Shown piece by piece: positions 55,036 through 64,000 of a DNA stretch of 64,000 nucleotides. Source of the DNA: Acidobacteriota bacterium (GTDB lineage Bacteria > Acidobacteriota > UBA6911); assembly GCA_963664705.1 (NCBI GenBank), contig OY761556.1, positions 4,192,001 through 4,256,000 of the forward strand. The letters are read 5' to 3'. Below the pieces are notes generated by a model, which worked only from the letters and a program-made list of their open reading frames with translations, was not told the origin of the DNA and made no database searches. The position numbers and the translations under genes are program-made. How positions within the stretch are numbered: the stretch's first letter is position 1; every line of letters starts with the position of its first letter.

Positions 55036-55093
55036 TTTCCAATTCCAGATTCAGGATTTCAGATCAAAATCCTGAATCTGGAATCCCGAATCC
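55036..55093. repeat. Heptamer-periodic 18-bp inverted repeat between convergent pilX and pspA
   Basis: ATTCCAGATTCAGGATTT (55042-59) pairs with AAATCCTGAATCTGGAAT (55067-84). Confidence 0.8.
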
Positions 55094-55743
55094 TAGAGCC
55101 GCCGCCGCGCCTTCAATTCTGAGAGCATCTTGTTGATCTCATCCTCTTTTTCCATCGAGGCAAACTTGTCGTCAACGTCGTCTCCCATCAACTCAGTCTT
55201 CGCGCGGCTCATGGAATCGGTATGCAGGACTCCTTCTTCGAGATGATCCAGATTGGATTTGCCTTCTGATCCCGCCTGCGCTTCTCCCGCCTTGTTCATC
55301 GATCGCGCTCTGCGGTGCCGCGCAATCAGAAGATCGCGTTTGTTGTGGGCTTCAGCCAGCTTGTCCCCCAATCGCTTCAGGGAGCCTTTGAGGACTTCTG
55401 CCTGTGCCTTCTGGTCCGCTTCCTGTGTTTTGAGGCTTTCCGCCATTTTTTGATGAGCCACCGAGCGTTCCAGTGCCGCGCGCGCGAGGTCGTCCTTTTC
55501 CTTATCCACAGCCAGTTCTGCCTTCTGCAGCCATTCCGCGGCCTTTTGTTCAATTTCCTTGCGCTTCTTTTCGAGCACATGTTGATCGGCGAGAGCCACC
55601 GCGACCTGCGTCTTCACCTGGATTAGTTGATTTTCCATATCCATGATGACCTGTTTGATCATCTTCTCGGGCTCTTCCGCCTTATCGATCAAGTCGTTCA
55701 GGTTGGCCCGAATCAGGGTTGTAACTCTCTCCAGCAATCCCAT
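55093..55743 (-). CDS. pspA: PspA/IM30 family protein
   Basis: MGLLERVTTLIRANLNDLIDKAEEPEKMIKQ, DDLARAAL, coiled coil. Confidence 0.93.
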   Translation of the reverse strand: MGLLERVTTLIRANLNDLIDKAEEPEKMIKQVIMDMENQLIQVKTQVAVALADQHVLEKKRKEIEQKAAEWLQKAELAVDKEKDDLARAALERSVAHQKMAESLKTQEADQKAQAEVLKGSLKRLGDKLAEAHNKRDLLIARHRRARSMNKAGEAQAGSEGKSNLDHLEEGVLHTDSMSRAKTELMGDDVDDKFASMEKEDEINKMLSELKARRRL

Positions 55744-55767
55744 TGCAGTACTCCTTTCCTCCGGAGC

Positions 55768-55792
55768 ACGCTCCCGGCGATGCCGGGAGCGT
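55768..55792. other. Intercistronic 11-bp stem-loop
   Basis: ACGCTCCCGGC-GAT-GCCGGGAGCGT, no U tract. Confidence 0.65.
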
Positions 55793-55824
55793 ATCGACTC
55801 GCTCCAGAGTGTTCCCCATGGTTA

Positions 55825-57273
55825 TTACACGGCAGAGGTGGTCTTATCCCTATTTTCTGCCATGTCCTTATCTTTAGCCTTCGCTTTGCCTATTTCCTTT
55901 ACCTTGCCCAGCAAGTCGGAAATCTGCATTCCGGACAGCGTCTCGAACAGGGCGGGCACCTGGGCCGCAATTTGAGTAATGTCCCCGGTAATCTTATGCA
56001 TGCCGGCGGAATCTCCATTGCCGGTCGAGACGATAGTGATCTTGTCGACGTTAGCCAGGGGCGATGCCAATGCACGGACAACATCGGGCATCCCGCTGAG
56101 CAACTTGTCAACCACGGCAGCCTGGTTCCATTCCTGATAGGCCTCCGCTTTGACATTCATAGCCTTGGCTTCCGCTTCGCCTTTTTTGAAAATGACATCG
56201 GCTTCGGCCTCACCCTGGACGCGGATGGCGGCCGCGCGGCCTTCGGCTTCAACGATCAGCCTCTGCTTTTCCGCGTTCGCCAGAGCCTCAATCCTGCGCC
56301 GCTCTATTTCCGCCGGCTTGAGCACGGTAGCGATCAATTCGCGCTCCCGCCTCTCAATCTCCGCATCCTGCACGTTGATCTCGTTTTCCTTCCCGACCCG
56401 CTGGATCTTGACGGCTTCGACGACTACCTGCTGCTGCATAACGTTGGTTTGGATTTCATATGATTTATCGGCCGTTGCCTGCTGCCGCTTGGTGGTTTCC
56501 AGGTACTGCGCCCTTTTGATGGCCAGATCCCGTTCAGCTTCCGCCTGCTTTGCCTGGGAAAGCGTCTCGGCAAGGACGCGTTCCTGGTCCGCCTGAGCCT
56601 TTGCTACCGCCGAGGCACGCTGCGCTTCGGCACGCTTGATGGCCGTGTCCCGTTCAGCTTCCGCCGTTGCAACATCGGCATCTTTCTTGATTCTTGCGAC
56701 GTCAGGGCGACCCATGTTTGTGATGTACTCGTTCTGATCCTTCACTTCTTTGATCGTGAACGAGATGACCTCAAGGCCCATCTTGTTCATATCTTCAGCA
56801 CATGTGGACCGCATGCGGTCGGCAACCATTTCGGGTTGCTTGACAATTTCCTCAACCGTCAACTGCCCGATAATGCCGCGCAGATGCCCTTCCATCACCA
56901 GTCGAATCAGGGCTTCGCGCTCCTGTTCCGTCTTGGTCAAAAACTGCTCCGCCGCGGTCTGAATGGACTCCGGATCCGATTTCACCTTGATCTGGGAAAC
57001 CGCCTCCACAGTGACCGCCACACCCTGTTTGGTGTACAGATCCTGTTTTGGAGCCACATCGAATGACATCAATTCCAGCGAGAGCTCACGGCAGCTCTCC
57101 ACCATGGGAAAAATCACCGTCCCGTGCCCCTTAACGATCCTTGTTCCGCGGAACCCGTACACCACAAGCGCTTCATGCGGACCGGCCTTCCGATATAAAC
57201 CCGTAAAAAGCGCAAGAAGAATGAAGATGACCAGTACCATCAGACCAGCCATCACAAAAACTCCCGTCGGCAT
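55825..57273 (-). CDS. Flotillin family (SPFH) protein
   Basis: N-terminal TM, AAEQFL, EGHLRGI, ISFTIKEV, AEA-rich flotillin repeats, VDKITIV. Confidence 0.93.
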   Translation of the reverse strand: MPTGVFVMAGLMVLVIFILLALFTGLYRKAGPHEALVVYGFRGTRIVKGHGTVIFPMVESCRELSLELMSFDVAPKQDLYTKQGVAVTVEAVSQIKVKSDPESIQTAAEQFLTKTEQEREALIRLVMEGHLRGIIGQLTVEEIVKQPEMVADRMRSTCAEDMNKMGLEVISFTIKEVKDQNEYITNMGRPDVARIKKDADVATAEAERDTAIKRAEAQRASAVAKAQADQERVLAETLSQAKQAEAERDLAIKRAQYLETTKRQQATADKSYEIQTNVMQQQVVVEAVKIQRVGKENEINVQDAEIERRERELIATVLKPAEIERRRIEALANAEKQRLIVEAEGRAAAIRVQGEAEADVIFKKGEAEAKAMNVKAEAYQEWNQAAVVDKLLSGMPDVVRALASPLANVDKITIVSTGNGDSAGMHKITGDITQIAAQVPALFETLSGMQISDLLGKVKEIGKAKAKDKDMAENRDKTTSAV

Positions 57274-57313
57274 AGATCCTCCCTATAACGTTGAATTCAT
57301 GATCCGATCTGTA

Positions 57314-57988
57314 TTACTCCGATTTTGACAACTCATCCCATGGACGCACATAGGCGATCCCGTTCTGGTACCGCGTGACCAGCACCTCGGTCCCCTTTGC
57401 GATCGCCTTCCCATCCTCACTGCGGGCTCCGCAGGTACGCCGCGTCCCTTCCTGCGAATAGATGATTTCACCAGTCCCCTGTTCGCGAATTGAACTCGAA
57501 ACGCGACCCAGAACGCCCGTCATTCGATAATCCGCCGGATCCAGATTGCGCTCCCGCCCAACCAGGACTTTGGCCAGGAACCAGAAAACCACGGAAGCCC
57601 CCGCCAGGCCGGTCAGGATCGAAAGCAGCAGCGACCATACAAACCACAAGGGTGAATAGGCCGTCAGCAGATATCCCGCTCCTCCGAACCAGGCCAAAAA
57701 AGCAGCAATTGTTCCAAGATTCAAAGGAGAAACGCTGGCCGCACGCATGCGATCCGAACTGGCCGCATCATGCACATGATCCCCATGTGCCAGATCATGG
57801 CCGCCGTGATGAAAGACATCCCCATGATGGAGGCCTCCGCCGTGATGCAACGCACCATGATGCAAAAACCCGCCCGAATCCCCGTCATGAAACGGGAGAT
57901 TGATATGAAGATGCCCAATCAACAGCGACAGAAGACTCCAAAAGAAACCAACCAGAAAACAGAACAGATAAAAATTTTGCCATGTCAT
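57314..57988 (-). CDS. NfeD/YuaF-like membrane protein with His-rich loop
   Basis: AFLAWFGGAG TMs, C-terminal OB fold (GRVSSSI...GEI...ARS...GTEV), HHG repeats. Confidence 0.85.
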   Translation of the reverse strand: MTWQNFYLFCFLVGFFWSLLSLLIGHLHINLPFHDGDSGGFLHHGALHHGGGLHHGDVFHHGGHDLAHGDHVHDAASSDRMRAASVSPLNLGTIAAFLAWFGGAGYLLTAYSPLWFVWSLLLSILTGLAGASVVFWFLAKVLVGRERNLDPADYRMTGVLGRVSSSIREQGTGEIIYSQEGTRRTCGARSEDGKAIAKGTEVLVTRYQNGIAYVRPWDELSKSE

Positions 57989-58521
57989 CGATCACGCCTC
58001 CGCGATATGGAGGTCCCACCATTGGGAGCATGGGAGCTGTCACTCTTTCGCTCCGGCGCAGAACTCAGGACTTCGGACAGCCGCTCAAACAGTCCCGGCG
58101 TATCCAGTATGTCCGCCAGAAGCAAAAGACATTTGCGGCTGTCGGAATGCCGCGCCAGCGCGAGCAACGCTGTGTGTAGCGCGTTATCGCGACTGAAGCG
58201 CTCCGCCCCTTCTACGAGCCACAGATCCAGCCTGTCTTCTGCCGCCCGCAGATCCGAGAGCAACTCCGGGTGATACCCTTCAGGATCATCCACAAGGTAG
58301 CCTGGATGGACCTTGAAGAAACGGGCCAGAAGAAGTCTCGTGGTATTGGTGAGGTGTGGACGTCGACCGCTTTCAATCTGGGAAAGATAAGACTGACTGA
58401 TCGCCTTCCCCATCTCTTTCTTGATGGCATCCACGACTTCCAACTGCGTCATTTCACGCCCTAACCCGCGCAACGCTCCTTCCAGCTCACGCATGTACCG
58501 AATCTTTTCCCCTAGATTCAT
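57985..58521 (-). CDS. XRE family HTH regulator
   Basis: LGEKIRYMR...TQLEV...ISQSYLSQIESGRRP. ATGA overlap with the next gene. Confidence 0.88.
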   Translation of the reverse strand: MNLGEKIRYMRELEGALRGLGREMTQLEVVDAIKKEMGKAISQSYLSQIESGRRPHLTNTTRLLLARFFKVHPGYLVDDPEGYHPELLSDLRAAEDRLDLWLVEGAERFSRDNALHTALLALARHSDSRKCLLLLADILDTPGLFERLSEVLSSAPERKSDSSHAPNGGTSISRRRDR

Positions 58522-61295: not shown

Positions 61296-62438
61296 TCACT
61301 TGTCTTCCTTCGGTCCGTCCCCGGCAGACTGGATACGGGAGCTGTGTTTCATGATGACGGCGAATAATTCGTCTACCAACTCCAGCGGCAGGCCCAGTGA
61401 TTTTCCCCATTCCTGACGAGGAGCCATCATGCGCCTTTCACGATCGGGGTCCACGACAGGTGTCGACTGGTTCATTTTGATCTTCCCGATCTTCCGCACA
61501 ACTTCAATGCGGTGACCCAGGGCCGAGAGTATCTGCTTATCATAGCGATCAACCATACTGCGCAGATCATGTTTGCGCGGCCGATTCAGGCTGTCCGGCA
61601 TCATTTTGCGCCGATGCCGTCCTGCCTGTTCCCAGGCAAGCGCCATTTCTCCACCAGACATTGCACCATTCAATTGCAGAAGCGTCCGGCCGAAACGATC
61701 AACTGCCTGCCTGATCGCTTCCTGGTTGGTGTCGAGGATTCCCTTCCACATGGAGTAATCTGATGCCGCCAGTCGTGTCATGTCGAGAAACCCTCTGCCG
61801 GCGATTTTATCCAGCATGCCATGCTCGGCATCACCCGCACGTGCAGTCTGCATCAGGGCGACCGAGATGAGCTGGGGAAGATGACTGACCATCGCCATGA
61901 TACGGTCGTGCTCTTCCGGATCCAGGGTGATGGGGATTGCCAGGAGGCTCTCAACTAGACCGATCAGGGTAATCAGCGCATCGGGTGGCGTATCCGGATA
62001 GGGACAGATCGCATAAACGCGATCGCTGAACAGAAGCGGGTCTGCGGCCTCCACGCCGGAACGCTCCGATCCCGCAACAGGATGCCCTCCGATAAAGTGC
62101 ACCCCGGGAGGGAGCAGCCCGCATGCACTTGCCATGATTGCTTTCTTGGTACTCCCCACATCAGTAACAATGGTGCCTTCGCGCAGGAATGGACGGAGCT
62201 GTTCAATCACGCCCAAAACAGACTGTACAGGAGTTGCCACAACAACGATGGAGCTTTCGGGTATATGGGCAGAAAAATCATCCATGGACCCAACCTGATC
62301 CGTCACCCCCGCCTCCCGTATAGCCGGAATGCGCTCAGGCAGATCAAGGCAGGCGATCGAATAATCCGGCCGCCTTCTTTTCAAAGCCAGCGCCAGAGAT
62401 CCTCCGATTAAGCCGCACCCGATAATCGTGATTTTCAT
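61296..62438 (-). CDS. tyrA: Prephenate dehydrogenase fused to a C-terminal AroQ chorismate mutase
   Basis: IIGCGLIGGS, DVGSTK, GGHPVAGSE, HDRIMAMVSHLP, TRLAAS, then LRSMVDRYDKQI..R...IGKIK...DPDRE...S..IQ. Confidence 0.9.
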   Translation of the reverse strand: MKITIIGCGLIGGSLALALKRRRPDYSIACLDLPERIPAIREAGVTDQVGSMDDFSAHIPESSIVVVATPVQSVLGVIEQLRPFLREGTIVTDVGSTKKAIMASACGLLPPGVHFIGGHPVAGSERSGVEAADPLLFSDRVYAICPYPDTPPDALITLIGLVESLLAIPITLDPEEHDRIMAMVSHLPQLISVALMQTARAGDAEHGMLDKIAGRGFLDMTRLAASDYSMWKGILDTNQEAIRQAVDRFGRTLLQLNGAMSGGEMALAWEQAGRHRRKMMPDSLNRPRKHDLRSMVDRYDKQILSALGHRIEVVRKIGKIKMNQSTPVVDPDRERRMMAPRQEWGKSLGLPLELVDELFAVIMKHSSRIQSAGDGPKEDK

Positions 62439-62453
62439 TTCAAATCTCTCCGT

Positions 62454-63482
62454 TTATTTTGCCTTGCCAAGCCGCCGGCCAAGAGTTGTGGCAATAATGC
62501 GGCATCGATTCATCAAGAGTCCGAATTCCTCGAAGGTCAAAGATTGCGGCCCATCGGACAGAGCCTTGTCGGGGTTAGGATGGATTTCCACCATGATACC
62601 ATCGGCGCCCGCGGCCACAGCTGCCCTGGCCATGGCGGCGACGAATCGACGGGTTCCCACGCCATGGCTTGGATCCGCAATAATCGGCAAATGCGAGAGG
62701 TGCTTCACGACGGGAATCGCTGATAGATCCAGCGTGTTTCGTGTGGCGGTCTCAAATGTGCGAATGCCTCTTTCGCACAAAATGACATCCGGGTTCCCTT
62801 CTGTCAGGATGTATTCAGCGCTCATCAGCAATTCCTGGATAGTTGCAGACAAACCCCGCTTCAGGAGAACCGGTTTGCCCGCATGCCCGAGGGCCGTCAG
62901 CAGCGGATAATTCTGCATATTGCGGGCACCGACCTGAAGGAGATCCGCATACTGCGCAACGGTATCAATCATTTCGATTGTCATGACTTCCGTAACCACC
63001 GCCAGTCCATGCCGGTCCGCCGCTTTCCGCAGAAGTTTCAGTCCTTCAAGCCCAAGTCCCTGGTAGGAATATGGGGATGACCGCGGCTTGAAAGCGCCTC
63101 CTCTTAATATCTGCGCTCCGCTTGCCGCCACCATCTCCGCACTGGCTTCAATTTGCTCCTCCGTTTCCACAGCACAGGGCCCGGCCATCACGGCCACCTC
63201 CATCCCGCCCACCAGGACATTTTCGCCGACACGGACTACCGTGTTTTCAGGGTGAAACTCATGGCTTGCGAGCTTATAGGGCGTGGAAACCAGGACTACA
63301 TCGCGAACTCCCGGCATTAGGGAAAAGGACCCGATGTCGAGTCGATTGCGATCACCCACCACACCCAGGATCGTGTGTTCTGTACCATCGGACCGATGCA
63401 CGAGCAGGCCGGCGTCCTTAATTTTCTGCTCCACAGCCTGGATCTGCGCCTCTGTGGCCTTTGCCTCACATACGACGATCAT
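62454..63482 (-). CDS. aroF: DAHP synthase type I-beta with N-terminal regulatory domain
   Basis: [47 protein letters not shown]. Confidence 0.95.
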
Positions 63483-63495
63483 AAAAATTCTCCCC

Positions 63496-63536
63496 AAAAA
63501 TACGAACGGCCCACCGGTTTCCCTGGTGAGCCGTTC
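63496..63536 (-). terminator. Attenuator terminator hairpin upstream of aroF
   Basis: GAACGGCUCACC-N9-GGUGGGCCGUUC followed by GUAUUUUU, 14 nt before the aroF ATG. Confidence 0.85.
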
Positions 63537-63583
63537 TTTCTCTTCTGTTCTGAATGCGACGAAGAAAGGAAAAGACGAGGCCC

Positions 63584-63637
63584 TCAGGGGTCGGTCTTAT
63601 ATGAGCGGTAATAGTAAAGAGAATAGCAAATGCTCAT
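63584..63637 (-). CDS. Tyr-rich attenuation leader peptide [17 protein letters not shown]
   Basis: 17 aa, 5 Tyr including YYY, SD-like GAAGGA, located before the aroF terminator hairpin. Confidence 0.85.
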
Positions 63638-63802
63638 TTCATCTTCCTTCAGCGTTATATAGTACCAGAAATCAGCGTCCGCTGTTAGCAGTTAGTATGG
63701 AGTCGGTCTATCCTGACATCTGCCCGGCAATTCTCCCCTGGAAACAACACCTCGTCTATCGCACTGTATTCCAAGGAATTCAGACTAAGGAGGATGTGAT
63801 GT

Positions 63803-64000
63803 ATGGCCACATGGGGACTTGTCGAATACCGCGATGCCTCACCCGAGGTGCGCGCAATCTATGATGACATTATGGCGACGCGGAAAGTGGACTGGATCAA
63901 CAATTTCTGGAAAGCTCTCGCCCACGATCCTGCCACGTTAAAGCGGACGTGGCAAAGCATCAAGGAAATCATGGCACCGGGCAGACTGGATCCGCTGGTG
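63803..64000 (+). CDS. Carboxymuconolactone decarboxylase / AhpD family protein (partial, runs off the right edge)
   Basis: SD AGGAGG. Hand translation MATWGLVEYRDASPEVRAIYDDIMATRKVDWINNFWKALAHDP... Confidence 0.85.
   Translation, partial: MATWGLVEYRDASPEVRAIYDDIMATRKVDWINNFWKALAHDPATLKRTWQSIKEIMAPGRLDPLV

Follow-up and report, generated by a model that had tools for sequence, protein, structure and literature searches.

The DNA studied here is a 64,000-nucleotide (nt) window of an Acidobacteriota genome (contig OY761556.1), in which the operon aroF-tyrA is preceded on the minus strand by a short, tyrosine-rich leader open reading frame (ORF) and by several overlapping predicted hairpins. 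We conclude that this conserved Tyr-codon leader, together with its hairpins, is very probably a ribosome-mediated transcription attenuator that senses charged tRNA-Tyr, and that aroF-tyrA is likely switched on when Tyr-loaded tRNA runs short. What was observed directly is the leader ORF, with a Tyr core whose spacing to the stop is constant, the downstream genes and the joint conservation of all of these. The original prediction, made from the letters of the window alone, had proposed a 17-codon leader with five Tyr at 63637-63584 of the minus strand, followed by four pairing segments and a U tract. Translation confirmed the leader, and the positions of the segments and the tail agreed with the sequence (minus strand; segment 1: 63598-63588; segment 2: 63583-63572; segment 3: 63536-63525; segment 4: 63515-63504; tail: 63503-63496). 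The elements are listed below in the order of transcription.

63659..63667, minus strand: extended -10 promoter-like element TGnTAnnnT, the putative leader promoter, from conservation of the motif
63643..63650, minus strand: purine-rich Shine-Dalgarno-like sequence of the leader, a purine block before the start being present in all aligned leaders
63584..63637, minus strand: leader ORF of 17 codons ending Asp-Pro-UGA, with the frame open in 37/37 aligned leaders
63608..63616, minus strand: Tyr core, the predicted sensing codons, residues 8-10 (-10, -9 and -8 before the stop), from Tyr conservation
63601..63637, minus strand: extra 6-bp pairing of the leader start (63637-63632) with 63606-63601, from folding; absent from the original prediction
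63572..63598, minus strand: hairpin 1:2 around the stop, a weak candidate for a pause or protector hairpin, from folding
63521..63589, minus strand: predicted antiterminator 2:3 (5' arm 63589-63569, 3' arm 63545-63521), from folding
63504..63536, minus strand: terminator hairpin 3:4, from folding and shuffled controls
63496..63503, minus strand: interrupted U tract, with the predicted 3' end of the attenuated RNA near 63496

The five Tyr occupy residues 5, 8, 9, 10 and 13 of the leader, and the chance of at least five Tyr in 16 residues is 6e-5 at the Tyr frequency of the genome. The genome contains 14,909 short ORFs that lie outside long ORFs and carry a Shine-Dalgarno-like trimer, 19 of them with at least four Tyr; the aroF leader was the sole Tyr-run ORF in this set that also has a terminator-like hairpin and a downstream gene. 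The same features were then scored in 37 distinct leaders, aligned as RNA in 37 rows fitted to a sequence-only model. These leaders are 16-21 codons long and each carries 2 to 7 Tyr, giving 157 Tyr in 634 residues (25%) versus 2.8% genome-wide (TAT: 103 codons; TAC: 54 codons). Tyr occurs at -10 in 34/37 leaders and at -9 in 34/37, and in both of these core codons the first base is invariant and the third is T or C only. In the 45 nt before the stop, Tyr codons occur 155 times in the leader frame versus 5 and 3 times in the other frames. No leader has a stop in the leader frame (0/37), compared with 16/37 and 5/37 for the other two frames, and an ATG in the expected zone is in frame in 32/37 leaders (other frames: 0 and 5). 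No indel separates the Tyr core from the stop in any leader, and Pro precedes the stop in 37/37 (Asp-Pro: 22; Gly-Pro: 10; Ser-Pro: 4; Asn-Pro: 1). Positions -3 to -8 are variable, with 5 to 9 different residues each. Longer in-frame starts of the leader were set aside because they are not conserved.

Besides Tyr, two other residues are enriched in the leaders, namely Phe (40/634, 6.3%, versus 4.3% in the genome) and Cys (34/634, 5.4%, versus 1.3%). Phe is absent from 12/37 leaders, including the leader of this genome. All 34 Cys codons are TGC; Cys and Arg alternate at the same leader positions as YGC codons, which suggests a constraint at the RNA level. The genome has a single tRNA-Tyr, with anticodon GUA, which by the established rule decodes both TAT and TAC, so that the two codons should be equivalent sensors. 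Upstream of the leader, the TGnTAnnnT element was present in 30/37 leaders within an 85-nt window, compared with 2.7% of random 85-nt genome windows, and a sigma-70 promoter scan reported no site for the leader.

The loci of relatives were collected through the TyrA protein and not through the leader motif. For 19 same-genus relatives the locus included the aroF start. In 18 of them the leader sat immediately before aroF; in the nineteenth, G016, the leader lies on another contig with an intron in between. A sequence model was built from 26 leaders, whose own matches follow by construction while those of the remaining leaders do not. It matched 26 of the 30 genomes of the genus, this genome included, and 34 of 50 other genomes of the family. 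Each matching genome gave one strong match, except G017 with its two operon copies. The locus contained aroF for 35 of the 37 strong matches, and every locus that reached the next gene had aroF there. The four genus genomes without a match comprised two that are 71-76% complete, G042, which had no match to the dehydrogenase part, and G006, with a truncated tyrA and no aroF in the examined stretch; three inspected family genomes without a match carry a more distant tyrA inside a longer operon. Outside the family, a single weak match (E 0.008) was obtained in 86 other genomes of the class. In 27 tyrA loci from other families of the phylum (one locus from an unpublished genome was left out), aroF was directly upstream in 21, and none of these 21 showed a Tyr-rich ORF in the 260-440 nt upstream, a range that a leader farther up would escape. 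A loose DNA pattern run over the genus gave no usable count, since its reversed control produced matches just as often.

A blind test was performed on metagenomes with a pattern that consisted of the Pro codon, the stop and segment 2 and contained no Tyr codon. The scan returned 19 matches, 15 of which had not been met previously. All 19 carried Tyr at -9 and 17/19 at -10, and aroF was detected downstream in 16/19, the other three ending at a contig edge. We judge the element to be real because it is conserved among relatives, in which Tyr-rich ORFs upstream of aroF, the first check suggested with the original prediction, were found with the same stems in both genus and family.

The terminator hairpin 3:4 is stable in folding and covaries among the leaders. 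It consists of the 12 bp first drawn (one of them G-U) plus 2 bp, with a folding energy of -26.0 kcal/mol (z score -4.9; 0/200 shuffles as good). In the alignment 93.5% of its cells are paired, its covariation was matched by 0/500 shuffles, and in a partner-swap test its own partner beat foreign partners (0/5000 permutations; three control pairings fell at 790-2955 of 5000). Folding, shuffles and covariation all bear out this hairpin, which a simple terminator scan missed on the minus strand. Since the upstream gene lies on the opposite strand, the hairpin falls inside the predicted aroF leader RNA. The U tract is present where it had been placed, yet it is interrupted, reading G-U-A and then five U, and in this genome 7 of the 10 nt that follow the G-C core are U; termination may therefore be leaky.

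The predicted antiterminator 2:3 folds with -24.4 kcal/mol (z score -2.1; 5/200 shuffles as good; mean z score over 37 leaders -2.1) and encloses an inner pyrimidine:purine stem. Together with this stem it has 83.7% of its cells paired, compared with 51-65% when the arms are slid, and it extends beyond what was first drawn, with its ends in the Pro codon (63589) and the terminator loop (63521). Hairpin 1:2 is weak (-7.3 kcal/mol; z score -0.66; 47/200 shuffles as good), so that the pairing originally assigned to it is possible without standing above shuffles. In the alignment 81.6% of its cells are paired (5/500 shuffles), a share that rises to 99% for the three C-G pairs on the flanks of the stop and is 74% for the outer helix. 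Run on the first alignment, RNAalifold returned just the terminator and the three pairs at the stop. The additional pairing at the leader start folds with -5.6 kcal/mol (12/200 shuffles as good) and has 72% of its cells paired, with changes on both sides in four of its six pairs. On three measures it was reached by 9 to 26 of 500 shuffles, and its own partner beat foreign partners (15/5000 permutations). In the folding model this pairing would hide the leader start codon when no ribosome is present.

The effect of ribosome position was assessed by folding each leader RNA as far as the nucleotides preceding segment 4, after deletion of the part covered by the ribosome or lying behind it; the footprint was extended to +12 or +15 from the P site. 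This was done for 36/37 leaders, segment 4 of the remaining one lacking the search motif. With the A site at -10 to -5, the probability of the antiterminator exceeded 0.5 in 32-36 of 36 leaders, whereas with the A site at the stop it did so in 2 or 0 of 36. In this genome the probability was 0.80 with the ribosome on the Tyr core versus 0.36 or 0.01 at the stop. With no ribosome it was also 0.80 in this genome, and across the leaders it was above 0.5 in 24/36 and below 0.5 in 12/36. The alternative structures are thus mutually exclusive in the folding calculation, and ribosome position decides between terminator and antiterminator. These results suggest that the ribosome can flip the switch in the direction suited to a biosynthetic operon.

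The position-dependent part of the trp-type logic claimed in the original prediction was thereby upheld, while the strict role it gave to pairing 1:2 is doubtful in this genome. In the model a ribosome on the Tyr core stops short of segment 1, and the antiterminator is already at 0.80 without any ribosome, so the off state likely needs a ribosome at the stop codon. Hairpin 1:2 is the first to form during transcription and may weigh more in the kinetics.

We propose the following mechanism. A ribosome located on the Tyr core or farther on, up to some four codons from the stop, would leave segment 2 paired with segment 3 and the terminator blocked; a ribosome at the stop would cover segment 2, and 3:4 would form. 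When Tyr-tRNA is scarce, the ribosome would linger on the Tyr core, the antiterminator would form and polymerase would read into aroF-tyrA. When Tyr-tRNA is plentiful, the ribosome would reach the slow Asp/Gly-Pro-stop and stay there, and transcription would end near 63496. The start-codon pairing would limit re-loading of the leader. Because hairpin 1:2 is weak in this genome, dwell time at the stop codon, more than 1:2, would set the off state. Leaky intrinsic termination at 3:4 is our best reading of the output. According to bioRxiv 10.1101/751305, Asp-Pro and Gly-Pro are the two C-terminal pairs that bacteria avoid most, and stalling at Asp-Pro-stop was reported for E. coli. Basal pheA expression is described, in the accessible part of PMC3082878 (Gurvich et al.), as hinging on ribosome release at the pheL stop. 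As the bases of the Pro-stop are also needed for pairing, selection for slow termination here is something we can only infer. A further elaboration, in which the dwell at the slow Asp/Gly-Pro-stop is lengthened by free Tyr acting on the Tyr-Tyr core in the exit tunnel, is unlikely. If true, the 17-codon peptide would respond to the charging of tRNA (on) as well as to the free amino acid (off) and so combine the pheL and TnaC designs within a biosynthetic operon.

The locus of G016 holds a group II intron (L055:1-126, minus strand, and L016:3127-3262, minus strand) between the terminator tail and the Shine-Dalgarno sequence of aroF. The intron starts right after the tail and ends just before the Shine-Dalgarno sequence on another contig; the assembly breaks inside it, and the link between the contigs was taken from G011, in which the sequence is uninterrupted. 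Domain V of the intron carries the CGC triad that marks class IIC introns, a class usually located 3' of terminators or other inverted repeats (PMC1702495). The insertion site supports a real stem-loop at this position, not termination as such.

Several points weigh against the attenuator reading. At least 7 U in 10 nt are found in just 18/37 leaders (at least 5 U in 36/37), and the U tracts of the aroF leaders are weaker than the tails behind this genome's Trp and Ile leaders. Of the stems that had been expected to covary in relatives, the terminator does so, but neither the antiterminator (228/500 shuffles; partner swap 457/5000) nor hairpin 1:2 (61/500 shuffles; partner swap 4435/5000) showed covariation above shuffles. 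This absence is expected where the same bases serve two helices, as noted for pheL bases in the accessible part of PMC3082878, yet covariation lends these two helices no support. Folding was computed at equilibrium, on truncated RNA and with a ribosome footprint that was assumed, and does not describe kinetics. The leader sequences are related, so that the counts overstate independence and are not independent trials. The Pro-stop may be kept merely for base pairing, as argued for pheL (PMC3082878, same text), and class IIC introns also insert after other inverted repeats (PMC1702495). In addition, the reported response of a Tyr-codon leader of aroF in Corynebacterium glutamicum is to Phe, with none to Tyr (review PMC11802643).

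These points leave room for other explanations of the same leader. The leader ribosome might control the fold while 3:4, instead of being an intrinsic terminator, mainly impedes the loading of ribosomes on aroF or prepares termination by Rho, a reading that would suit the interrupted U tracts, the hairpin end lying 20-24 nt before the aroF start in the 29 leaders (out of 37) that were measured, and the two rho genes of the genome. However, opening the aroF ribosome-binding site costs 8.4 kcal/mol with the antiterminator versus 7.9 kcal/mol with the terminator (mean of 29 leaders), and six leaders keep the design with 115-169 nt from stop to aroF, several of them with good U tracts. Translational sequestration of the site was set aside, since the opening energies do not support it, and we regard this explanation in its general form as very improbable. 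It is very unlikely that the leader encodes a TnaC-like arrest peptide, in which free Tyr or an aromatic metabolite would hold the ribosome at the Pro-stop, cause termination and so report abundance. The invariant Pro, the absence of indels between the Tyr core and the stop, and the stop-codon ribosome that the off state is predicted to need would all agree with such a peptide, and C-terminal Pro is named as a key TnaC feature in the accessible part of PMC3082878. Against it, the residues between core and stop vary freely, the length of the Tyr run varies (2 to 7 codons), which would suit a tRNA sensor, two C bases of the Pro codon are needed for pairing, and E. coli pheL ends in CCC-UGA too.

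The attenuator might also lack Tyr specificity, with Phe and/or Cys co-sensed or being the real signal. Both residues are enriched in the leaders, the exclusive use of TGC for Cys is unpredicted by a simple decay of TAT/TAC, DAHP (3-deoxy-D-arabino-heptulosonate 7-phosphate) synthase feeds all three aromatic branches, and C. glutamicum offers a precedent. Every leader nevertheless has at least two Tyr while a third of them or thereabouts (12/37, with this one) contain no Phe, the alternation of Cys with Arg as YGC points to the RNA, and the second gene of the operon is specific to the Tyr branch, the Phe-branch fusion lying elsewhere without a Phe leader; we therefore hold this possibility to be highly doubtful. 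That the ORF is incidental and the region a mere terminator or structured spacer before aroF is extremely improbable. Short ORFs are indeed common in the genome, and 1:2 and 2:3 do not covary, but the frame-specific Tyr codons, open frame, start, Shine-Dalgarno-like sequence and promoter motif are conserved together, and the opposite-strand orientation of the upstream gene puts the hairpin inside the predicted leader RNA. A fusion of leader and aroF by frameshift or read-through at CCC-UGA was rejected, as the spacing is spread over the three frames (13/11/11 of 35).

Attenuation by leader peptides has been described for Trp, Phe, His, Thr, Leu, Ile/Val and Cys, and tyrosine genes are the textbook case of TyrR or T-box control. 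The Tyr leader had been called undescribed; no tested tyrosine attenuator was found in the searchable literature, although supplements of comparative attenuation surveys could list Tyr leaders, and near precedents for aroF do exist. Apart from hairpin 1:2 and the U tract, the aroF leader shows every computable defining feature of pheL/trpL-type attenuators, and it represents a new specificity for a known mechanism. No Rfam leader family was detected in 63000-64000 at E up to 10, the matches there being at chance level, and the leader locus L073 had no match to RF01859 or any other Rfam leader at gathering score (E. coli control: 132 bits). Like E. coli pheL-pheA (RF01859), the element has a short leader with aromatic codons that ends in CCC-UGA before an aromatic-pathway gene; in both, the C bases of the Pro codon pair with G just after the stop, and an inner stem is followed by a G-C hairpin with a U tail. 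Unlike pheL, it carries Tyr in place of Phe codons, controls aroF-tyrA and not pheA, and has an interrupted U tract and the extra start-codon pairing.

TnaC responds to a free amino acid and, through a block of Rho, activates a catabolic operon. The present leader resembles it in its Pro-stop ending and, as far as the accessible literature describes TnaC, in control through a ribosome held at the stop. It differs in belonging to a biosynthetic operon and in a peptide that shows little conservation beyond the Tyr core. A conserved Pro-stop at fixed spacing to an aromatic residue, the hallmark applied to TnaC, was found here, and base pairing explains it equally well.

The closest tested system, in the accessible parts of PMC11802643 and PMC4046766 (Mentz et al.), is aroR-aroF of C. 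glutamicum, an attenuator with a Phe-Tyr-Phe leader before a DAHP synthase gene. It shares a Tyr codon in a leader upstream of such a gene; it belongs to the Actinobacteria, no tyrA link is stated in those texts, and the comparison is by description and not by sequence. In Acholeplasma, uORFC-13-1 was described as an upstream ORF with a terminator solely upstream of aroF, for which attenuation was proposed (Brewer et al. 2021, PMC8632094); its authors, in the accessible text, read it as Phe-sensing, as a proposal only. Our leader differs from it in its Tyr codons and its phylum, again by description, and one supplement searched gave no match. Table 3 of PMC2659441 lists Shewanella aroF as an "attenuator sensing tyr-tRNA", citing Camakaris et al. 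1980 on E. coli; in the accessible part of PMC2659441 itself aroF is among the genes without a proposed RNA structure, and no Tyr leader peptide is named. The attenuation thus hypothesised for E. coli/Shewanella would resemble ours in sensing Tyr-tRNA before aroF-tyrA, while gammaproteobacterial aroF-tyrA is assigned to TyrR or TrpR in the text available of PMC5343134.

The mechanism itself is textbook and near precedents exist, but a conserved, Phe-free Tyr-run leader before aroF-tyrA offers a clean and directly testable case for a gap in attenuation, as the sole tested Tyr-codon leader that we found, that of C. glutamicum, was reported in the accessible text to be unresponsive to Tyr. In an uncultured Acidobacteriota family, mini-genes overlooked by gene callers would govern at least three amino-acid pathways (Tyr, Trp, Ile). 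The 37 variants and the metagenome matches form a natural series on how slow Pro-stop termination sets the basal level, and the element is a compact, portable candidate for a tyrosine biosensor.

The controlled operon lies directly downstream of the leader.

63490..63495, minus strand: Shine-Dalgarno-like sequence of aroF, a GGAG-type motif right after the tail in most relatives
62454..63482, minus strand: aroF, DAHP synthase with an N-terminal ferredoxin-like domain, 342 amino acids (aa), from profile matches, starting at ATG 63482
61296..62438, minus strand: tyrA, prephenate/arogenate dehydrogenase with a C-terminal type II chorismate mutase, 380 aa, from Pfam matches

AroF matched NCBIfam NF006421 (485.8 bits) and TIGR01361 (391.5 bits), both above cut-off, as well as Pfam PF00793 and PF18152, and its relatives align from residue 1; a TTG start at 63497 was set aside as not conserved. 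The TyrA fusion matched PF02153, PF20463 and PF01817 above gathering score, whereas the NCBIfam dehydrogenase models shown matched it below their cut-offs, and its substrate may be prephenate or arogenate. From these profiles the products are predicted to act as a DAHP synthase and a dehydrogenase-chorismate mutase. Of the 17 records returned for TyrA at 58-82% identity, 16 were titled Acidobacteriota, Acidobacteria or Terriglobia (one of them UBA6911) and one Syntrophaceae, in line with an Acidobacteriota genome. In one relative (L047:8001-9112) the tyrA match is split over several frames, which may reflect sequencing errors. On the other side of the leader, the divergent gene at 63804-64000 of the window (plus strand) varies among relatives and thus lies outside the element; from its CxxC motif we take it to be a carboxymuconolactone decarboxylase/AhpD-like gene. 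Downstream of tyrA, and directly after it in two relatives, lies a four-gene cluster (window 55093-58521, minus strand), presumably encoding helix-turn-helix, NfeD-like membrane, flotillin-like and PspA-like proteins.

Other regulatory loci of this genome, which is 98% complete and rated 6% contaminated, are as follows.

C1:630383-630472, plus strand: Trp leader MSSKANVQIDVWCWWRSDTCARVGWPPLP, ending CCC-UGA, with a strong terminator and trpE (TIGR00564 above cut-off) downstream
C1:6084745-6084671, minus strand: Ile-rich leader MIQRTSANIISIAIIMITGISPGG, with a terminator and then the citramalate synthase gene cimA (TIGR00977)
C1:4262446-4264446, minus strand: chorismate mutase-prephenate dehydratase-DAHP synthase fusion of the Phe branch, 668 aa
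C1:71720-72607, plus strand, and C1:5895678-5896532, minus strand: two tyrosyl-tRNA synthetase (tyrS) genes
C1:644007-644228, minus strand, and C1:3894087-3894308, plus strand: rho genes

The original prediction had set the attenuator against TyrR and T-box control, and neither was matched here. The T-box model RF00230 gave no match in this genome (a control model was detected in 5/14 genomes). For TyrR, TIGR04381 gave no match and the PF18024 helix-turn-helix gave four matches, all below cut-off; TyrR boxes were not searched. The Phe-branch triple fusion lies about 7-9 kb upstream of the operon, beyond the window. No Phe leader was found before it in this genome or in 9 relatives, and a conserved TGTG(G/C)(G/A)ACAAT-like motif occurs about 30-45 nt before its start. 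No Tyr leader was found in about 500 nt upstream of the two tyrS genes, trpS or the third DAHP synthase gene. ARAGORN calls in the genome included three tRNA-SeC, three tRNA-Cys and one unassigned tRNA.

Neither the Trp leader, whose core before trpE is Trp-Cys-Trp-Trp, nor the Ile leader had an Rfam match at gathering score. The Ile-rich leader ends in PGG in 18 of the 20 genus loci that hold the cimA start, and an Ile attenuator on cimA may merit attention. In G010 (L155:1-70, plus strand), the 3' end of a group II intron similar to that of G016 lies directly before cimA, at the site of the Ile attenuator of its relatives, and group II introns may repeatedly hit attenuator hairpins in this genus.

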